DNA of 64,000 nucleotides from Candidatus Parvarchaeota archaeon (GCA_017609105.1 JAFCEQ010000001.1:47407-111406), one strand, 5' to 3'. Shown: positions 1-56,757, counted from the stretch's first letter. Notes: generated by a model not told the origin, from the letters alone. A program made the numbers and translations.

Positions 1-775
1 TTTCTTTAAGAAGTTCTTCATAATTCTCTTTTAATATTTTTAGTGATTCATTAAACATTGTTTTTGCATCTAATTGCTCCCATGACTCAATTGTCATAAT
101 TATTTTTGTTTCATCCCATTCTATATTAATAATGTTTTTACAAGCTTCTAAGCAAGAATCCTTGATTTCACTTATCGCGAGATTAGTGTTATCAACAACA
201 ATTTTTCCTTTCTCTAATTTTATTGCTTCTGAAGTACAATTTTTTATGCATTCTTTTGCTTCTTTTTCAGTATGAGGTTTTACTTTAATTTTAGGAAAAT
301 AAGAGTATGAAACCATGCCTGGAACCCATTTTGCGTGTTCTAATCCTTTTCCTAATACTGCCACAGCTTTTAAGTTTATTTCCTGTCCTTCAAACAATTT
401 TGTTATTGGAATATCTTTTATTACTGGTTCAAAACCTGTTTCAGTTTTTAAATCTCCTGAATAAACTGTTTTAGGTCCTTTCTCTTTTAAATAAAACTCT
501 ACTCTGCATTTATTGCAGCCCTTGCCTTTGCATGAACATTTTTCAGGAAGTTTTAATAATTTTAAATCTGTTTTTAGTGGAATTAAACCAAGTCTTAAAG
601 CAATAACTTCATCATACATTGCACTTGAATTATTTGTAATAACCACATCTTCTATTGCAAGAGTTGGTACCTCAGAAATTATTGTTCTCCTAATAGCATT
701 CGCTTCTTCAGGCATTGTATCTTCAAGCAGAATTTTTGTTTTTATCTTATTTTCACTTATGATTTTTGCTTTCAT
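1..775 (-). CDS. rpoD: DNA-directed RNA polymerase subunit D (Rpo3), partial; the 3' end runs off the window
   Basis: Hand translation of the minus strand from the ATG at 775-773 gives [49 protein letters not shown]... with a Cys cluster [11 protein letters not shown] typical of the Rpo3 Fe-S domain. The start overlaps the rps11 stop (ATGA), and the position after rps13-rps4-rps11 is the conserved archaeal order. Confidence 0.75.
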
Positions 776-1329
776 ATTCTTCTACCTCTTCTACCTCCTT
801 TTTTCCTGCATCCATCATGAGGTAATGGTGTAACATCTTTTATCACGCCAATTCTAAGTCCTGCTCTCGCAAGAGCTCTTATTGCTGCTTGCGCTCCTGG
901 ACCCGGATGTTTAGGCCCATTATGTCCTCCAGGAGCCCTAACATAAATGTGCACTCCTCCAATTCCTTTTGCTAATATTTCTTGCGCTGCTTTTCTCGCA
1001 ACTTGCATTGCAGCTGTTGGAGATGATTCAAGTCTTGAGGATTTAACAACGTGTCCTCCGCTTACTCTTGCAAAAGTCTCGCTTCCTGTTAAATCAGTTA
1101 CATGAACCATTGTGTTATTATAACTTGAAAAAATATGAGCTATTCCCCACCTAATTTGTCTTTCTTTTCTTCTTTCCTTCTTCTCTTCCATCTTGCTTTC
1201 CTCTTTTTTGTTTTCCTTGACTTCAATTTTTACTTTTTTCTCTTGCGTGTTTTCTTTTTTTTCTTTCTTTGATTCTTGTTTTTCTGCACTAACTGCTTTT
1301 ATTTCTTTTTTTTCTTCATTCTTATTCAT
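772..1329 (-). CDS. rps11: 30S ribosomal protein uS11 with a K/E-rich N-terminal extension
   Basis: The C-terminal 130 aa ([33 protein letters not shown]...[19 protein letters not shown]) is canonical uS11. The start overlaps the rps4 stop; an internal Met would remove the ~45-aa lysine-rich leader. Confidence 0.9.
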
Positions 1330-2615: not shown

Positions 2616-4982
2616 TTATTTTCCAATTTTAATAACTGGTACTGCAACATATTCAGGTGGTTTTTTAATAAATTTAATGTAAATAATCACTGATATTAAT
2701 ATAATCGATGGCAGAACAATAACTAAGAAGAATATGAGCCATGGGAATTGTCTTTTTACAATGAACGGACGTGAGAATGTGCTTTCTCTCTGCCCTATTT
2801 TTGCTGTTACTTTTACATCATAATTTCCTTCTGAGTAATTCGTTAATACTGGGATTTTTTCTTCAAAATTCAGGGTTTTTCTTAAAAATTGTTGGTCGTG
2901 ATTCTCGTAAATGGATTTATTATCTTTTATTATTTCATAGTCAAGCAAGACTTTTGTAATATCCTCCCATGTTTTTGAAATTGTTACATTAAGCAGGAGG
3001 TCTTTGCCTGGTGCTGTTTTTTCTTTTGGAATGCTAATGTAAAGGTCAATCCAATCAATATTTAATGGGTTTGAAAAAGAAAAAAATCTTGCTTTATCTT
3101 CATCAGGGAATTGCATGAAATAATCAATTGAGTAAGAGTAATCTGAACTTGTTGCTTTTGTTTTATCAATTGTTACTTTGAATTGCATGGTTGTATTTGG
3201 TTCAATAGTCACGTTTTGTGGTTCAACAGTGTATTGTGTTTCATTTAGATTGTTTAATTTAATTATTGTATTATTCATGTATGCATTGTAAGGGTTAAGC
3301 ACTGAAATATAAAAACTTAAGTAAGTCGTGTTTTCTTCTGTAACATAAATGTATTGAGTTGTAACAGAGTTAACGCTTACACAACTTGCTTTGCATTCAT
3401 TATCACACCATTGCCCTCCCATTATTGTACAAGTAGTTTCATTATTGCACACTTCCAAGTGTTGAGGGCTGCAACAATATTCTTCTTCACAAGTTCCTGT
3501 AAGAGCACACCATTTCTTACCTAATGATTCGCATTCTGTTTGATTGCATAAACTTAAATGATACTCATCACAACAAGAAGTGTTTCCACAAACACCATTA
3601 CAAAAGTATCCTCCCATATTATAACAATCAGTGACATTCGTGCAAGCTGTTAAATTGCTTATATGACAAGTCAAACAAGGCGAGCTCGAACAATAATTCC
3701 CGCACCAATTACATCCTACGTTTTCACAATCAGTTTTAGTATTACAAGCTGTATCACAATTTGAATAAGAGCAAGTTTCTTCTCCTTCTCCAACAACAAA
3801 AGCACCAATAAAAGTTGATGCTGTTAAAGTGTTAGCGCTTTCATCTTTTGTTGCACTAATGCTTGACCAACTTCCTGTGCAAGTTCTTGAAGAGTAATCC
3901 CATGAAGAGCATCCTTTCATTTGCATTCTTGATTCTGTTACTCCACTATCATCATAAGTTATTTTCACTGTTGCGGAATTATAATTAATTATTCCTGAAT
4001 AAAGCCCTATTGCTTTTTGTGGTGTAAGAGTTAATGGAAGAGAATCATGAGGCACTGGAATATCATCAATTAAAAGAATTTCAGTAATATCATTATTTAT
4101 TGTTGCTGAATTAATTGTTATTTCATAGCTTCCGTAAGTTATTTTAAAAGTATAAGTGCCTTCTATTAAATCAAAAGAATAATCTCCTGTGTAATCTCCT
4201 GAAACAATTGTTCCTGAAGAATTTGTTATTTCTAAATTAACTGTGATAGGCGTTCCGTCTTTATCAACAAAACTACCGCTTACTGTGTGTATGGCTTGAG
4301 AAGATATTGTAAAATAATAAATATATTCTCCTGTCCTATATCCGTCTTTTTCAGCTTTAAAAGTAAAGTGATGACTTCCTGCAGTGTAACCTGATAAATC
4401 AACAGTTCCAACAAAACTACCTCCCTCTCCTGTCGTAACTGTTCCTATTAAATCACTGTCAACATAATATTTTAAATCTTGATTAGCCATTAATTGGCAG
4501 TAACAATCTGGTCCAGCATCTGGTTTGAAATTACAGCAAGCATTATCAACAATTCTTCCTGAAAACCCTACTTGAGCATTCTGCTCGTAAGGGGAGTAAG
4601 TATCAAGATTTAAAGTCAAGTTTAAAGCACCTTCGTAAACATCAACGTTTTTTGTTTTTATCTCATCTTCATAACCTGTTTTATGAGAACGCGTTGTTAA
4701 AACATAAGTTCCTACTTCATTCGGGGCTTCAAAACTTATTATGAATTCTCCACTGCTATTTGTGACAACCATTCCTGCAATGCTATTCACAAGACTTCCG
4801 TCTTTTGTAAGATTGTAATAAACTTCTGCATCACCAATATTCGTGTTTCCAGGAAAAGCTGTTGGTTTCCCTCTTAATGTAATGCCATTTTTTTCATCTC
4901 CTAATTCATGCGTTATTATTTCTGCATTAACTATTGAAATTAAAAAAAACAAGGCAATCATTGAGTAAGTTTTTTTAAGCAT
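2616..4982 (-). CDS. Large Cys-rich cell-surface protein with an N-terminal signal peptide, PEGA/carboxypeptidase-regulatory-like beta domains, four tandem ~30-aa Cys-rich modules and a C-terminal TM anchor
   Basis: Signal peptide MLKKTYSMIALFFLISIVNA. Repeated modules TDCENVGCNWCGNYC / TDCYNMGGYFCNGVC / TECESLGKKWCALTGTC / TTCTIMGGQWCDNEC. C-terminal hydrophobic stretch WLIFFLVIVLPSIILISVIIYIKF followed by KKPP. Confidence 0.5.
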   Translation of the reverse strand: MLKKTYSMIALFFLISIVNAEIITHELGDEKNGITLRGKPTAFPGNTNIGDAEVYYNLTKDGSLVNSIAGMVVTNSSGEFIISFEAPNEVGTYVLTTRSHKTGYEDEIKTKNVDVYEGALNLTLNLDTYSPYEQNAQVGFSGRIVDNACCNFKPDAGPDCYCQLMANQDLKYYVDSDLIGTVTTGEGGSFVGTVDLSGYTAGSHHFTFKAEKDGYRTGEYIYYFTISSQAIHTVSGSFVDKDGTPITVNLEITNSSGTIVSGDYTGDYSFDLIEGTYTFKITYGSYEITINSATINNDITEILLIDDIPVPHDSLPLTLTPQKAIGLYSGIINYNSATVKITYDDSGVTESRMQMKGCSSWDYSSRTCTGSWSSISATKDESANTLTASTFIGAFVVGEGEETCSYSNCDTACNTKTDCENVGCNWCGNYCSSSPCLTCHISNLTACTNVTDCYNMGGYFCNGVCGNTSCCDEYHLSLCNQTECESLGKKWCALTGTCEEEYCCSPQHLEVCNNETTCTIMGGQWCDNECKASCVSVNSVTTQYIYVTEENTTYLSFYISVLNPYNAYMNNTIIKLNNLNETQYTVEPQNVTIEPNTTMQFKVTIDKTKATSSDYSYSIDYFMQFPDEDKARFFSFSNPLNIDWIDLYISIPKEKTAPGKDLLLNVTISKTWEDITKVLLDYEIIKDNKSIYENHDQQFLRKTLNFEEKIPVLTNYSEGNYDVKVTAKIGQRESTFSRPFIVKRQFPWLIFFLVIVLPSIILISVIIYIKFIKKPPEYVAVPVIKIGK

Positions 4983-6623: not shown

Positions 6624-7181
6624 TTATTCTTTTAAATGATTTATTATTAAATTAAATTCTTTTTCAGTTATTTCAGGCCATTGAAGTTTGTTTAAGAGGT
6701 AATCTAAACTCATAATTTTTATTGGTTTTGATTTAACAAATCTTATTATTATTTTATTGTTTTTTATTTTAAAAGAGAAATCTTCAAAATCAGGGAATTC
6801 TTTTAAAATATGTTTTAAGTTTTCTATTCTTATTTTAGTTCTTGGATTATAATCTTTTTCAAAATAATAATTTTTGCACATTTTAGTAGTGTTTGTTTTG
6901 AATTTGTATTGAGTATTGTAAAGCGCGATTTCATCTAGAAATGCTTTGCCATCTTTGATTTTAACATTTTTGTTAGAAAGAAAAATGAAGTAATCATTTG
7001 TTAAGTTTTTCTTTTTTATTGAGTGTCCCGCTTTTTCTGCATAAATAAAGGATTGGTAAATAGTTGAAGAAATTATTAGAATTGTTAAGAATGTTAAAAG
7101 AAAATCAATATTATTGATTTCTATGATAATTATTAATGCTAACAATAATAATATAGTTATTTTAAAAAAATGTTTTTTCAT
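6624..7181 (-). CDS. Hypothetical protein with an N-terminal membrane anchor
   Basis: ORF with an N-terminal hydrophobic segment ITILLLLALIIIIEI. No recognisable motif. Confidence 0.35.
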   Translation of the reverse strand: MKKHFFKITILLLLALIIIIEINNIDFLLTFLTILIISSTIYQSFIYAEKAGHSIKKKNLTNDYFIFLSNKNVKIKDGKAFLDEIALYNTQYKFKTNTTKMCKNYYFEKDYNPRTKIRIENLKHILKEFPDFEDFSFKIKNNKIIIRFVKSKPIKIMSLDYLLNKLQWPEITEKEFNLIINHLKE

Positions 7182-7291: not shown

Positions 7292-7690
7292 TTGTGGAGT
7301 AAGGAAGAAGAGGATTATGTGAGGATTGAAATCTCTATTCATAATGTTATTCTTGCTAATAATATTTTAATTGGTTCTGAAAAGAATAGGGTGAGCACAT
7401 CTTATTTGTTGTTGAATTATCTTGGCGGTAATTTTGAGAACTTGAAGGCAATTGATGAAAAAAGCGTGTCGTATAAGAGAGAAAAAAGGCATTGGTTCTT
7501 GTTTCTTAATAATTTGGGCGGGCAGTATTATTTAAGTGATTGTGATAATTTTTTTTTAAAAAGCATTGAAAGAGGTTCTTTAGAAGAAGTTTATTATTTA
7601 ACTAAGGATGTTTGTAAAACTTTTGGAAGTCAAGAATGTGATAGTAATGCTAAGAATCTTTTAAATTTTTTGAAAACATTAAAAAAGTAG
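7292..7690 (+). CDS. Hypothetical protein
   Basis: Isolated 132-aa ORF with ordinary composition and no recognisable motif. Confidence 0.3.
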   Translation: MWSKEEEDYVRIEISIHNVILANNILIGSEKNRVSTSYLLLNYLGGNFENLKAIDEKSVSYKREKRHWFLFLNNLGGQYYLSDCDNFFLKSIERGSLEEVYYLTKDVCKTFGSQECDSNAKNLLNFLKTLKK

Positions 7691-7699
7691 TTTAAAAAT

Positions 7700-8066
7700 T
7701 GATTTCTTTATTTTCTCTCTTGCCTTGCTTTTAATTATTTTTTCCTGTCCTTCTTTCACTTTGCCTTATTTTTTATTTTCTTTCTTTTCTTTCTTCTCGC
7801 TTTTTCTTGTCCTTTAACTTTCCCTTATTTTTTTCTGCTGACTTATTCTTTATTTTTCTTAATTTTTTTCCTTTGCTTTCTTTATTTTTTACTTTTCCTG
7901 CTGCGCTTTATTCTTTATTTTTCTTAATTTTTTTCCTTTTTATTTTCTTGCTTTGTTTTGTTTGCCTTATTTTTTCCTGCTGTTTTATTCTTTGTTTTCT
8001 TTCTTTCCTGCCCTTTAACTTTTTATTTTCTTTCTTCTCGCTTTTTCTTGTCCTTTAACTTTTCCC
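7700..8066. repeat. Pyrimidine-rich (purine-rich on the coding strand) degenerate tandem repeat tract 3' of rpl14e, with units of ~65-70 nt related to the rpl18/rpl19e leader element
   Basis: Repeated cores such as ttattctttatttttcttaatttttttccttt occur twice, tttctttcttctcgctttttcttgtcctttaactt occurs twice and tttgccttatttttt(c)ctgc occurs three times. They share the gccttatttttttcctgc-ttattctttatttt core with the 14372-14534 and 15166-15326 copies. Confidence 0.6.
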
Positions 8067-8378
8067 TTATTTTTTTTCTTTTTTTGCTGTTGTTTTTTTC
8101 TTAGTTTTTTCTTGTTTCTTTTCTTTTCTTGTTTTCTTGTCTTTTGTTTTTAATTTGAATCCTGCTTCAATCAATGCTTTTCTTGTTTCTTCTGTGCTTG
8201 CATTCTTTTTTATTTTTAAGATTACTGGCGCGAAATCAAGGTGTGCTATATTGCATTTCCTTCTTTTCACATCGCCATCAATAATCACGAACTTATCATC
8301 AAGTTTGTCTATAATAACGCAAACACGTCCGGCTTCTCTTCCTGCAATTTTAATACAAACTCTTCCAATTTCTATCAT
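8067..8378 (-). CDS. rpl14e: 50S ribosomal protein eL14 (KOW domain) with a K-rich C-terminal tail
   Basis: MIEIGRVCIKIAGREAGRVCVIIDKLDDKFVIIDG is the eL14 KOW signature. The cmk-rpl34e neighbourhood matches. Confidence 0.8.
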   Translation of the reverse strand: MIEIGRVCIKIAGREAGRVCVIIDKLDDKFVIIDGDVKRRKCNIAHLDFAPVILKIKKNASTEETRKALIEAGFKLKTKDKKTRKEKKQEKTKKKTTAKKEKK

Positions 8379-8434
8379 AAATGTTTTAACATAAGAAACT
8401 ATTTTAAAAAGTTTTTGGAAATCAATTTATTTTT

Positions 8435-13872: not shown

Positions 13873-14371
13873 ACTTCATCTCCTCTATTGTTTTTTTTAT
13901 TTTTTCAAAATCTTGTTTAATTTTTAAATGCTCTCCTTTTATTCTTTCTTCTGAAGGCATGATTTCAGGGTCATAATTTATTTTTATTCCACCGTCTGTT
14001 ATTCCTTTGATGAATGCCATGATTGAACATCCTTTGATTATGAAATGTAATCCTGTGTCAGGAACTACTTCTTTTATTTTGTTGTTTAATGCTTTTTTTG
14101 CAAGTAAGTAGCCTGTTAAGTATGATGCTGTTATGTTTTTCGTGTTTTCTCCTTTCCAACCGAGATTTAGTAATTCTTTTGAGTTTACTGTTATTAGGAT
14201 TTTATCTCCTTTTTCATTGTATTCAGCGATTTGCCCGATTACGCGTTTGTTTGTTTTTCTTATGATTAATCTTGGTTTTCTGCTTTTTAATAATGCTAAT
14301 CTCTTCTTATAATTAGTTTTTTGTTCTCTTCTTCTCCTGTATTTCACCACATATGTTGCTTTTTTTGCCAT
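13853..14371 (-). CDS. rpl18: 50S ribosomal protein uL18
   Basis: YRRRREQKTNYKKRLALLKSRKPRLIIRKTNKRVIGQI is the uL18 N-terminus. Confidence 0.9.
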   Translation of the reverse strand: MAKKATYVVKYRRRREQKTNYKKRLALLKSRKPRLIIRKTNKRVIGQIAEYNEKGDKILITVNSKELLNLGWKGENTKNITASYLTGYLLAKKALNNKIKEVVPDTGLHFIIKGCSIMAFIKGITDGGIKINYDPEIMPSEERIKGEHLKIKQDFEKIKKTIEEMKFGRKKK

Positions 14372-14534
14372 TTTTCCACCAATTTCATTCTTAATTACTC
14401 TTTTATTTTACCTTATTTTTTTCCTGCCACCTTATTCTTTATTTTCTTTTTTCTCCTCTTGCTTACCTTATTTTTCTCTTCTCCATCCCCTATTTTTTGT
14501 TTTCTTTTTTCTCCCTTTGTTTTGCCTTATTTTT
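14372..14534. repeat. ~160-nt leader/intergenic element, copy A (5' of rpl18, 3' of rpl19e); near-identical to copy B
   Basis: catttttccaccaatttcattcttaattactcttttattttaccttatttttttcctgccaccttattctttattttcttttttctcctcttgcttaccttatttttctcttctccatcccctattttttgttttcttttttctccctttgttttgccttattttt matches 15166-15326 with only a few substitutions and indels. Confidence 0.7.
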
Positions 14535-15165
14535 TTGTCTTTTTTTCTTTTTTCTCTGTGTTTTTCTTTGTTTTACTTGTTTTCGCGCGTTCTTCTTGTT
14601 TTACTTGTTTTTTTTGTGTTTCTTGTTTTTTTTGTTTCTTGTTTTGGTTTTCTTTTTCTTGTGCTTTGTTTTTTAGTAGTTCTTTTAATTTTTTTTCTTT
14701 GTTTTCTTTGTATTTGGTTAAATCTTTTTTCATTGTTTTTGTTAGGTAGAGTTCAAGGTGTGAGATGCTTCTGAAAAAGTTTCCTTTTGATTTTAAGTAT
14801 AATTCTCTGTATTCTTTGTTAGTGATTATTTTTGAGTTTTTTAATTCTTTTAGGAATCTTCTTTGAGGTCTTATCTTATTTATCCATCTTCTTTTCTTTG
14901 GATTTCTTGCTTTGAAGGTTCCTTTTCTTTTGCCTTGCCCGCTTCTTCTTCCTTTTCTTTTTTGTGCTAGTACTTTTTTCTTTCTTCCTGAGCTTATTCC
15001 TTTTTTTTGTTTTTTTGTTATGATTTTGTTTTTTATTAATGAACGAACATCTGCTCTTGTGATTGCTTCTTTTATTTCTTTGAGTTTTTCAACATTGAAT
15101 TTAACTCTTTTTTTTCCTGCTTTCAGTAGTTTTGCTCCTAATCTTTTTTGTGTTCTTAATTTCAT
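14527..15165 (-). CDS. rpl19e: 50S ribosomal protein eL19 with a K-rich C-terminal tail
   Basis: MKLRTQKRLGAKLLKAGKKRVKFN...GRRSGQGKRKGT matches eL19. Confidence 0.9.
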   Translation of the reverse strand: MKLRTQKRLGAKLLKAGKKRVKFNVEKLKEIKEAITRADVRSLIKNKIITKKQKKGISSGRKKKVLAQKRKGRRSGQGKRKGTFKARNPKKRRWINKIRPQRRFLKELKNSKIITNKEYRELYLKSKGNFFRSISHLELYLTKTMKKDLTKYKENKEKKLKELLKNKAQEKENQNKKQKKQETQKKQVKQEERAKTSKTKKNTEKKEKKTKK

Positions 15166-15326
15166 TTATTCCACCATTTCATTCTTAATTATTCTTTTTT
15201 GCCTTATTTTTTTCCTGCCACCTTATTCTTTATTTTCTTTTTTCTCCTCTTGCTTACCTTATTTTTCTCTTCTCCATCCCTATTCTTTGTTTTCTTTTTT
15301 CTCCCTTTGTTTTGCCTTATTTTTTA
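15166..15326. repeat. ~160-nt leader/intergenic element, copy B (5' of rpl19e, 3' of rpl32e)
   Basis: Near-identical to 14372-14534, including the SD-like GGTGG immediately upstream of the ATG. Confidence 0.7.
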
Positions 15327-20398: not shown

Positions 20399-21250
20399 TT
20401 ATTCTGCCTTGTTTGGCTCTTTCTCTTTGCCTTGTTTTTCCTTGTTTTGTTCTTTTTTTGGTTGTGCGTGTTCTTTCTGACTTTCTTTTTCGTTTTTTTC
20501 CTTTTTTTTCTTAACTTCTTCTTTTTTAGTTTCTTCTACTTTCGTTTCTTCTGTTTTAGCTTCCTCTGTTTTTGCTTCTTCCACTTTTGCTTCTTCTGTT
20601 GTAGTTTCCTCTGTTTTTGCTTCTTCTACTTTCTTTTTTATTTCACTAACTTCTTCTAATGTGTAAGTAATATCATCAGGCATTTTCAAAGCAGGCGGAA
20701 GTATTTTCACTGTAACGCCAACCACTCCGATTTTTAGTTTTGCTTCTTTAAACCCTATTTCCACGAGTTCATCGCTTGGTTCTCCGCATTTCGGAAGGAA
20801 TCCTTTGTAAAACCTCCAATACCTTGCTCTTTTTCCAGGCACTTTTCCTGAAATCTTTATTTCAACGCCTTGCGCTCCTGCTTTCATTACTTCTGCAATG
20901 CTTCTGTGCCCTATTGATTTGAATCTTCCTACGCCAAAGTGTGTTAATTGATTTGCTATTTTTTCAGCAACGATTTGAGCATCTAAATAAGGTTCAGTAA
21001 TTTCTCTTACTTCTACTTGCGGTGAGTCAAGTTTGAATTTTTTTGTAAGAGTTTCAGTAATATTTCTTATATTTTCACCGCCCCTGCCAACAATAAGTCC
21101 TGGCTTGCTAGTGTAAATAACAACTTTAACACCCACAGGTGTTTTCACTATTTCTACTCTGCTGAATTCTGTTTTTTCTAAATTATTCTCAAACCATTCT
21201 TTAATTATTTGTTCTCTAATTCTTTGTTGAATGAATTTTTTTTCAATCAT
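20399..21250 (-). CDS. rps3: 30S ribosomal protein uS3 with a ~70-aa E/K/T-rich C-terminal tail
   Basis: KH domain VVIYTSKPGLIVGRGGENIRNITETL and C-terminal GVEIKISGKVPGKRARYWRF match uS3. Tail is TEETTTEEAKVEEAKTEEAK... Confidence 0.9.
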   Translation of the reverse strand: MIEKKFIQQRIREQIIKEWFENNLEKTEFSRVEIVKTPVGVKVVIYTSKPGLIVGRGGENIRNITETLTKKFKLDSPQVEVREITEPYLDAQIVAEKIANQLTHFGVGRFKSIGHRSIAEVMKAGAQGVEIKISGKVPGKRARYWRFYKGFLPKCGEPSDELVEIGFKEAKLKIGVVGVTVKILPPALKMPDDITYTLEEVSEIKKKVEEAKTEETTTEEAKVEEAKTEEAKTEETKVEETKKEEVKKKKEKNEKESQKEHAQPKKEQNKEKQGKEKEPNKAE

Positions 21251-37595: not shown

Positions 37596-37680
37596 CGCCA
37601 GGGACGAGATTCGAACTCGCGCCCTCAAGAAGAGGACAGGCTCTCCAGGCCTGCGCGTTAGACCACTCCGCCACCCTGGC
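37596..37680 (-). tRNA. tRNA-Ser (anticodon GGA)
   Basis: Reverse complement GCCAGGGTGGCGGAGTGGTCTAACGCGCAGGCCTGGAGAGCCTG + long variable arm + GCGAGTTCGAATCTCGT CCCTGGC-G, with anticodon loop CTGGAGA. Confidence 0.8.
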
Positions 37681-56637: not shown

Positions 56638-56757
56638 TCCCGCCTCCCGGATTCGAACCGGGAATCTCACGGTAACGGCTAATAAAGAACACGTGTTCGT
56701 GTTCAGCCCTTTAAACCTAACTACAGCCGTGCGCGTTAGCCATTACGCTAAGGCGGG
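56638..56757 (-). tRNA. tRNA-Tyr (anticodon GTA) with a 47-nt intron at the canonical 37/38 position
   Basis: Exons CCCGCCTTAGCGTAATGGCTAACGCGCACGGCTGTAG / ACCGTGAGATTCCCGGTTCGAATCCGGGAGGCGGGA. The C1-G72 pair is the archaeal Tyr identity element. Intron is TTAGGTTTAAAGGGCTGAACACGAACACGTGTTCTTTATTAGCCGTT. Confidence 0.75.

Follow-up and report, generated by a model that had tools for sequence, protein, structure and literature searches.

The purine-rich DNA behind rpl14e is a non-coding and fast-evolving homopurine spacer that has, in our view, probably grown by local duplication and that is likely transcribed with rpl14e as a 3′ trailer. It represents a lineage-specific low-complexity spacer and not a new kind of element or mechanism. 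Nor is it the birthplace of the lysine- and glutamate-rich (K/E) tails of the ribosomal proteins (r-proteins), as an earlier note on this DNA had suggested; that idea survives only narrowly.

We analysed 64 kb of the host genome (the window, i.e., the whole stretch of 64,000 nucleotides) together with three close relatives. The window is an archaeal segment of low GC content (~30%) with r-protein genes on the minus strand, and judging from L14e homologues and related loci the host belongs among Woesearchaeota/Nanoarchaeota-type DPANN archaea. The order on the minus strand is L34e, cmk and rpl14e, followed by a gap of 376 nt, after which come ORF132 (7292–7690, plus strand), ORF185 (minus strand) and cbf5 (minus strand). 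The rpl14e coding sequence (8067–8378, minus strand; 103 aa) is identified by the ORF list, a match to the KOW motif and homologues named L14e, and its K-rich tail is encoded at roughly 8070–8150 on the same strand. ORF132 is a conserved, clade-specific gene that is convergent with rpl14e and shares 56% amino acid identity with its orthologue in the relative L032. Both ORF132 and ORF185 are clade-specific and conserved (56–57% identity to the orthologues of the nearest relatives), and neither matched a Pfam family. The repeats had previously been described as separating rpl14e from cbf5, which does not fit this gene order: the neighbour is the convergent ORF132, and both ORF132 and ORF185 intervene before cbf5 is reached.

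The spacer runs from the rpl14e stop to the ORF132 stop (7691–8066, minus strand; 376 nt) and is ~86% purine on the rpl14e sense strand. The longest strand-pure tract of the entire window is found at 7702–8157 (456 nt, 86% pyrimidine on the plus strand), and between 7700 and 8066 the plus strand counts 237 T, 77 C, 30 A and 23 G. Several duplicated blocks are recognizable, all given here on the minus strand. Block A is a 51-nt block whose two copies are identical at 50 of 51 positions, with one indel. Its copy 1 (AAAAAAATAAGGGAAAAGTTAAAGGACAAGAAAAAGCGAGAAGAAAGAAAA; 8026–8076) reaches across the end of rpl14e and takes in the final 7 nt of the coding sequence as well as the TAA stop (8067–8069), and its copy 2 (7785–7834) lies 241–242 nt downstream. 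At the composition of the tract, where the alignment base frequencies give a per-base match probability of ~0.46, such a 50/51 match is impossible as a chance event. Block C, which begins with AAAGGAAAAAAATTAAGAAAAATAAAGAATAA, has copies at 7905–7939 and 7840–7874 that are identical at 33 of 35 positions, with an offset of 65, and that contain an exact 32-nt pair (7843–7874 and 7908–7939). Block B copy 1 (7961–7998) holds the core AAAGAATAA-N4-GCAGGAAAAAATAAGGCAAA that is common to the leaders of L19e and L18; the exact pattern match is at 7961–7993, and there is a 43-nt alignment to the L19e leader. Block B copy 2 (7819–7856), which overlaps the start of Block A copy 2, matches the pattern with two mismatches, and a 34-nt pair links it to 7965–7998 (88% identity, offset 142).

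The best self-match offsets of this flank are 241, 65, 142, 201, 40, 59, 31 and 250, and the matches at 201, 40, 59 and 31 are weaker than those at 241, 65 and 142. The periods detected by TRF are 35 (3.3 copies, 69% matches), 31 and 22, with 63–81% matches overall, and the pieces between successive TAAGG motifs, as read from the sequence, measure about 31 to 78 nt. The tract is hence an irregular nested mosaic and not a regular 65–70-nt array. Of the original description, in which degenerate tandem repeats trail rpl14e as at least three units of ~65–70 nt, the duplicated blocks are real and far beyond chance. The tandem regularity is not, since there is a single pair at offset 65 and TRF finds no period of 65–70.

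The tract is non-coding, because it has stops in all frames and no period-3 signal, and because its repeat offsets are not multiples of 3. The three sense frames of the flank contain 4, 9 and 9 stops, with the in-frame one having the fewest, and after the rpl14e TAA the next in-frame stop comes after 3 codons. TAA accounts for 21 of the 30 T's on the flank sense strand, and its count of 21 exceeds an expectation of 12.5 ± 2.5, although the observed count is inflated by the duplicated copies. No ORF of at least 40 aa on the minus strand is present in the ORF list for 7691–8066. A period-3 signal is lacking in the flank as a whole (p = 0.77–0.83) and in its thirds, and it is likewise lacking in both the L19e and L18 leaders and in the spacers of the relatives. 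The idea that the tract is a coding low-complexity tail was rejected on the stop at 8067–8069, the 4/9/9 stops, and the lack of periodicity and of in-frame units. F/L-rich ORFs do exist on the pyrimidine strand (7807–8058 and 7958–8104), but we rejected them as an identity of the tract; they are to be expected there, since stops need purines and these are scarce on that strand.

True K/E tails look different in these respects. G shows periodicity at period 3 (p ≤ 0.011) in seven of eight of them, and the L14e tail of L032 is periodic as well; the L14e tail of the window itself has no period-3 signal. In seven of the eight true tails the best self-repeat offset is a short multiple of 3 (S3, 45/15; L19e, 18/9; L32e, 9; L4, 21; L22, 12; S4, 12; S11, 51), such that the tails consist of in-frame repeat units of 9–51 nt, mostly multiples of 3. 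In the flank, by comparison, a multiple of 3 occurs in one of the eight top repeat offsets.

The earlier note had also observed that purine-rich DNA stays open in frame downstream of the stops of rpl19e and rpl32e. These open frames exist (37 codons for rpl19e and 30 for rpl32e), and their in-frame translations include GKTKGEKRKQKIGDGEEK beyond the L19e stop and KKIRKQGAGQAK beyond the L32e stop, just as NTENRKKTRKK is included beyond the L14e stop in the L032 lineage. However, they do not go beyond chance: shuffled spacers give a probability of 0.09–0.17 for at least 30 open codons, such that purine bias explains the open frames, as the note itself had anticipated as a refutation.

We find that the flank is related to the spacers that precede L19e and L18. 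The L19e leader block (15163–15325, minus strand) carries a GGTGG Shine-Dalgarno (SD)-like motif and the ATG, as well as an internal 57-nt repeat in 2.2 copies. The L18 leader (14369–14535, minus strand) contains the rpl19e stop and ends at the L18 ATG. The two (15325 to 15163 and 14535 to 14369) share ~95% identity over ~165 nt, through GGTGG and up to the ATG, and an internal repeat of 57–58 nt is present in each. The L18 leader is a recent duplicate of the L19e leader. We rejected the possibility that this duplication reached into the tail codons of L19e, as the match there consists of just 10 nt (CGAAAACAAG, p about 0.04).

With an unweighted +1/−1 alignment, the flank and the leaders give z = 2.0–2.6, at which homology is not separable from composition. 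We therefore replaced the +1/−1 scoring by a log-odds matrix in which A:A matches weigh little and matches of T, C or G weigh much. In this composition-weighted Smith-Waterman comparison the flank matches the leaders with z = 4.8–6.2 under a first-order null (0/400 shuffles) and with z = 3.7–5.3 under a second-order null, where 0–2 of 400 shuffles reach the score. The shared core measures 33–43 nt, and the common 43-nt motif reads AAAGAAAAYAAAGAATAA-N4-GCAGGAAAAAA(A)TAAGGCAAA. Motif searches of the window returned matches essentially only in three spacers, namely the flank, the L19e leader and the L18 leader. As controls, seven segments encoding K/E tails were compared to the flank, and all stayed at the null (z ≤ 0.7). 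The previously proposed kinship of the tract with the rpl18/rpl19e leader is therefore borne out, with a similarity beyond composition at z = 4–6.

The nearest relatives are represented by three syntenic contigs, L031 and L032 (JGI) and L033 (ENA), which are 74–79% identical to the window at the nucleotide level, and whose core r-proteins mostly show 80–87% identity. A metagenome scan returned relatives at 39–67% identity among the matches listed. A purine-rich spacer follows L14e in all three contigs; it measures 131–138 nt as compared to 376 nt in the window, which has about 240 nt more. Between L32e and L19e, a purine-rich spacer of 161 nt (L031 and L032) or 225 nt (L033) is found. The corresponding gap in eight other lineages is −4 to +12 nt, so that the 161–225-nt spacer is limited to the clade of the window. 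The L19e–L18 spacer is absent from L031–L033, where the L19e stop overlaps the L18 ATG. Among 104 scored loci, a purine tract after the L14e stop was seen in the window, the three relatives and one further case of 37 nt.

The orthologous spacers of the window and of L032/L033 align no better than random sequence of matched composition (z = 0.2–0.5), and homologies between them that were apparent by eye were discarded on these statistics. In the relatives themselves, the flank shows no relation to the leader (z = −0.7 to −0.8). The position and the purine composition of the spacer are conserved, then, and its sequence is not, and the repeat family is confined to the host genome among the relatives compared. 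How quickly such spacers can change is illustrated by L032 and L033, which are 98.3% identical over 18 kb and nonetheless differ by 64 nt in their L32e–L19e spacers; the difference is made of local vocabulary, and the tail lengths are identical. A separate observation is that both lineages have kept a purine-rich spacer at these two positions, which, like the TAA excess, could indicate selection as opposed to neutrality.

As to transcription, a 21-nt BRE/TATA-like block (TTCCAAAAACTTTTTAAAATA; 8400–8420, minus strand) ends 21 nt before the rpl14e ATG and has the same sequence in the window, L032 and L033, while the neighbouring spacers are not conserved. We infer that this block is the rpl14e promoter. 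The archaeal TATA box usually lies at −26, and since the block ends 21 nt before the ATG, the rpl14e mRNA is probably leaderless; it also appears to be monocistronic. Transcription termination in archaea depends on oligo-T. On the rpl14e strand, no run of at least four T's occurs inside the spacer, and the first oligo-T runs (T5 and T6), a putative termination site, are found at 7681–7698 (minus strand), 368–380 nt past the rpl14e stop. On the ORF132 sense strand, by comparison, the 376-nt spacer holds 13 runs of at least five T's, the first of them at 7738–7775, so that an oligo-T terminator zone lies just behind the stop of ORF132, as opposed to rpl14e with its runs only at 368–380 nt. The relatives display the same asymmetry, with seven runs in 131–138 nt. 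Because archaeal termination is oligo-T dependent, the spacer may act both as the 3′ trailer of rpl14e and as a one-directional stop for transcription of ORF132.

Taken together, we envisage that the spacer of the host lineage once measured about 130 nt and reached 376 nt through several rounds of local segmental duplication, with slippage or unequal recombination acting on the low-complexity DNA. The rpl14e mRNA would be monocistronic, with its start at the BRE/TATA-like block, the spacer as its 3′ trailer and its end at the first oligo-T, and the oligo-T series on the opposite strand would halt ORF132 transcription before it enters rpl14e in antisense. Any role of the tract would rest on its composition and not on a specific sequence, in that it provides structure-free RNA with TAA in all frames. 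The extra ~240 nt are probably neutral growth, because the relatives manage with 131–138 nt and there is no evident benefit of a longer spacer. The core that is shared between flank and leaders would reflect recent copying between polypurine spacers within the host genome, and the same copying process would have put the ~165-nt L19e leader with its SD motif and ATG in front of L18, thereby providing a new rpl19e stop. The K/E tails, finally, would be a separate, older and coding class of low-complexity sequence.

This last point bears on the proposal of the earlier note that lysine/glutamate-rich tails are born from expansion of these repeats, with stop gain or loss setting tail length. In a broader form, the proposal sees in the spacers a reservoir of proto-tails, where losing a stop or shifting the frame lengthens a K/E tail and gaining a stop shortens it, with the boundary between coding and non-coding DNA shifting to and fro within the repeats. 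Two stops do lie inside duplicated spacer blocks: the rpl14e TAA is within the 51-nt block, the second copy of which lies 241 nt downstream, and the rpl19e TAA (14527–14529) is within the ~165-nt copy of the L19e leader that now precedes L18. The duplication of spacers has thus altered two proteins, at least in their final codons. Furthermore, the tail lengths of relatives differ, and do so only in low-complexity segments. L19e has 212 aa as compared to 181 aa in the relatives, with a 33-residue insertion and +31 aa overall, and the other differences are −4 for L14e, −5 for L32e, +4 for S4 and −6 for S11; all indels of r-proteins between the window and the relatives fall within K/E segments. 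The open codons after the stops of rpl19e, rpl32e and, in the relatives, rpl14e (37–38) would offer material for such extensions, and the L14e tail of the window not only lacks a period-3 signal, but its coding DNA is also marginally similar to the flank (z = 2.0–2.8).

Nevertheless, we consider such a reservoir unlikely. The seven other r-protein tails have no similarity to the repeats (the controls mentioned above), the tails carry period-3 signals and in-frame units that the spacers lack, and the open frames stay within the expectation from shuffles. The repeats are specific to the host, whereas the tails are common to the relatives and also to distant Woesearchaeota that lack the repeat family. 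Because the family is host-only and tails are present in the relatives and widely in Woesearchaeota L14e, the K/E tails predate the repeat family, and they grow by their own in-frame repeats of 9–45 nt. The L32e stop has not moved, because the C-terminus KSFKGDSNRGR is conserved. The comparison of orthologous loci, which had been suggested as a check, gave a divided answer: tail lengths do differ, but strains that are 98% identical vary in the spacer and not in the tail. The K-rich rpl14e tail, which had been thought to be encoded by the same tract, does adjoin it, but the repeat homology enters the coding sequence for only 7 nt plus the stop, and an extension of the 51-nt duplication into the tail codons was rejected (anchored extension score 0). 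What is left of the proposal is that the rpl14e and rpl19e stops lie within duplicated blocks.

One can also turn the argument around and regard the flank as the decayed remnant of a longer L14e tail that was cut by a nonsense mutation and then scrambled by duplications. L14e is indeed variable in length, ranging from 71 to 187 aa among the scored loci, where many tails measure 80–100 aa, and many Woesearchaeota have proteins of 150–185 aa. Also, the TAA in the relatives is followed by 37–38 open in-frame codons of K-rich-like content, as compared to 13–15 in the other frames, and in the window the in-frame stops of the flank are fewer than those out of frame. However, the frame bias is not significant by our estimates (~0.09 for the relatives, and a chi-square p of ~0.3 for the window), and neither the window nor the L032 flank has a period-3 signal. 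Furthermore, the same kind of spacer is found behind L32e, the C-terminus of which is conserved and not K-rich, and the flank showed no similarity to the tail-coding DNA tested. We therefore regard a decayed tail as improbable, too.

It is more doubtful still that the core (GCAGGAAAAAATAAGGCAAA and its neighbours) is a cis-regulatory element, to which a regulator, an r-protein or the decay machinery would bind in order to coordinate L14e, L19e and L18. The core is present only in three spacers of r-protein genes and always on the sense strand, its similarity is above composition, and TAA and TAAGG are over-represented. Yet, it is not conserved in the closest relatives, neither at the orthologous sites nor between their own flank and leader, and that the relatives lack the core speaks against a conserved binding site. 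Copies as similar as these are what recent duplication, and not constraint, would leave. The flank has no SD-like 5-mers, and in the leaders these are not significantly enriched. Structure is lacking as well: the MFE of the 376-nt sense RNA is −2.27 kcal/mol, which is weaker than that of shuffles (z = +2.0), and Rfam gave no match at gathering score and one chance-level match at E ≤ 1. On these two grounds we likewise rejected a structured cis-regulatory RNA or riboswitch.

That the extra ~240 nt and the leader copy stem from mis-assembled low-complexity reads is very improbable: the source is apparently a metagenome assembly, and low-complexity duplicated DNA is error-prone, but the copies have diverged (95% identity and lower, with indels) and are interleaved with unique sequence, spacers of this class are found at the corresponding sites of three independently assembled relatives, and the flanking genes are intact. 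Some further identities were considered and rejected. A CRISPR array, which should have near-identical repeats of 24–48 nt and unique spacers of similar length, does not agree with a single exact 32-nt pair and with inter-repeat segments that are themselves repeated low-complexity purine. A MITE or other small mobile element does not agree with the absence of inverted repeats in 7600–8250, nor with undefined ends and copies restricted to three r-protein spacers. A replication origin should show inverted ORB elements beside orc1/cdc6 and a skew switch; the tract has direct repeats only, its neighbours are rpl14e, ORF132, ORF185 and cbf5, and cumulative GC skew has no lasting turning point there.

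How does the tract compare to known systems? Low-complexity regions rich in K, E and A have been described at the termini of prokaryotic ribosomal proteins (Ntountoumi et al. 2019, PMC6821194). The neighbouring L14e, L19e, L32e, S3, L22, L4, S4 and S11 carry such regions, and these show indels between relatives and short in-frame repeats, as slippage or recombination predicts. The tract itself differs from them in that it is non-coding; it has the purine composition in common with these regions, but not the sequence or the codon periodicity. Apart from this general work on r-protein low-complexity regions, we found no literature on polypurine spacers in r-protein operons of DPANN archaea.

The tract also resembles a degenerate minisatellite or VNTR, in that pieces have been duplicated locally head to tail, close strains differ in length and the unit is not conserved between species. 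Unlike these, it has no constant period, being a nested mosaic of 31–78-nt pieces, and it is confined to the spacers of r-protein genes, where the homopurine is strictly on one strand and the purine always on the sense strand. Homopurine-homopyrimidine tracts and the purine loading of sense strands are known from Szybalski's rule, which usually describes a mild genome-wide bias. The strand purity of 86%, the purines on the sense strand of highly expressed genes and the unstructured RNA are in keeping with purine loading, from which the tract differs in forming discrete stretches of 150–450 nt that have arisen by duplication in one small clade.

Archaea are known, for instance from Term-seq work, to have long 3′ UTRs and intrinsic terminators made of oligo-T. 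The 13 runs of at least five T's on the ORF132 strand, and the first oligo-T for the rpl14e strand at the far end of the spacer, conform to this pattern, although the number of T-runs is far above what one terminator needs and the terminators here are putative, as deduced from the sequence. Eukaryotic eL14 (human RPL14) has a length-polymorphic, repeat-encoded C-terminal region. It belongs to the same protein family as archaeal L14e, which shows the same plasticity in length (71–187 aa), but the repeats of eL14 are coding, whereas those of the tract are behind the stop codon.

A bolder view, to which we assign a low probability, is that polypurine modules in this small Woesearchaeota clade are functional, copyable and structure-free mRNA segments that serve as leaders, as trailers and as occasional donors to tails. 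If this were true, leaders with an SD motif and ATG could be transplanted in front of another gene, as from L19e to L18, and 3′ trailers could tune the stability of r-protein mRNAs or insulate convergent genes. Furthermore, the modules would now and then donate stops or additional K/E/R-rich residues to r-protein tails, and coding tails and non-coding spacers would exchange material.

Irrespective of this, the locus provides a clean and dated example of low-complexity DNA remodelling a conserved ribosomal operon, in which a leader was duplicated in front of L18, a gene that was previously translationally coupled. The transplanted L18 leader, the two re-specified stops and the change in spacer length between strains of 98% identity are the details that stand out. 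Purine-rich tails and spacers are easily confused by gene callers and by readers in the AT-rich genomes of DPANN archaea, and composition-weighted alignment, period-3 analysis and repeat offsets modulo 3 offer criteria by which coding tails can be told from non-coding spacers.

Two of the three syntenic contigs most closely related to the window, L032 and L033, are 98.3% identical across 18 kb, and their L32e-L19e spacers measure 161 nt (L032:3325-3485) and 225 nt (L033:3261-3485). The difference of 64 nt is due to two insertions, the material of which belongs to the local purine vocabulary. The spacer is thus hypervariable in length at the level of strains.

Repeats are also found within the low-complexity tails of the ribosomal proteins. 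Compared to its orthologues in the most closely related genomes, L19e as a whole is 31 aa longer, and its tail (14530-14700, minus strand) contains a 33-residue insertion composed of degenerate in-frame 9- and 18-nt repeats of the CAAGAAAAA type. The tail of S3 (gene at 20399-21250, minus strand) displays a clean 15/45-nt in-frame repeat with EEAKT-type units and without indels, and S11 (772-1329, minus strand) has a K/E-rich extension of approximately 60 aa at its N-terminus.

Upstream of rpl14e, a 21-nt block, TTCCAAAAACTTTTTAAAATA (8400-8420, minus strand), is identical in sequence comparisons among the window, L032 and L033, whereas the adjoining spacers are not conserved. The block looks like a BRE plus TATA box of rpl14e, and, since it ends 21 nt before the ATG, it suggests that the rpl14e mRNA is leaderless and monocistronic. 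Between rpl14e and cbf5 lie two conserved hypothetical genes, ORF185 (6624-7181, minus strand) and ORF132 (7292-7690, plus strand), which are 56-57% identical to their orthologues in the relatives and match no Pfam family. The ORF185 product, whose N-terminal segment is hydrophobic, is probably membrane-anchored.

Elsewhere in the window, a cysteine-rich protein of 788 aa (2616-4982, minus strand) is encoded between the S13 cluster and a methyltransferase gene, with a signal-like segment at its N-terminal and a hydrophobic segment at its C-terminal end. It is conserved in L032 and L033 (790 aa), while L031, the third relative, has two shorter genes instead. Two long-arm tRNA genes (2461-2544 and 37596-37680), 35 kb apart, are ~91-94% identical. 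A third tRNA match (56638-56757) spans 120 nt, which suggests that it contains an intron.

The L18 leader (14369-14535, minus strand) is a duplicate, at ~95% identity, of the L19e leader (15163-15325, minus strand), and the duplicated stretch takes in the ATG as well as GGTGG, which is SD-like. This copy has been inserted at the point where, in the relatives, stop and start codons overlap, such that in this genome an independent initiation region has taken the place of translational coupling between L19e and L18.
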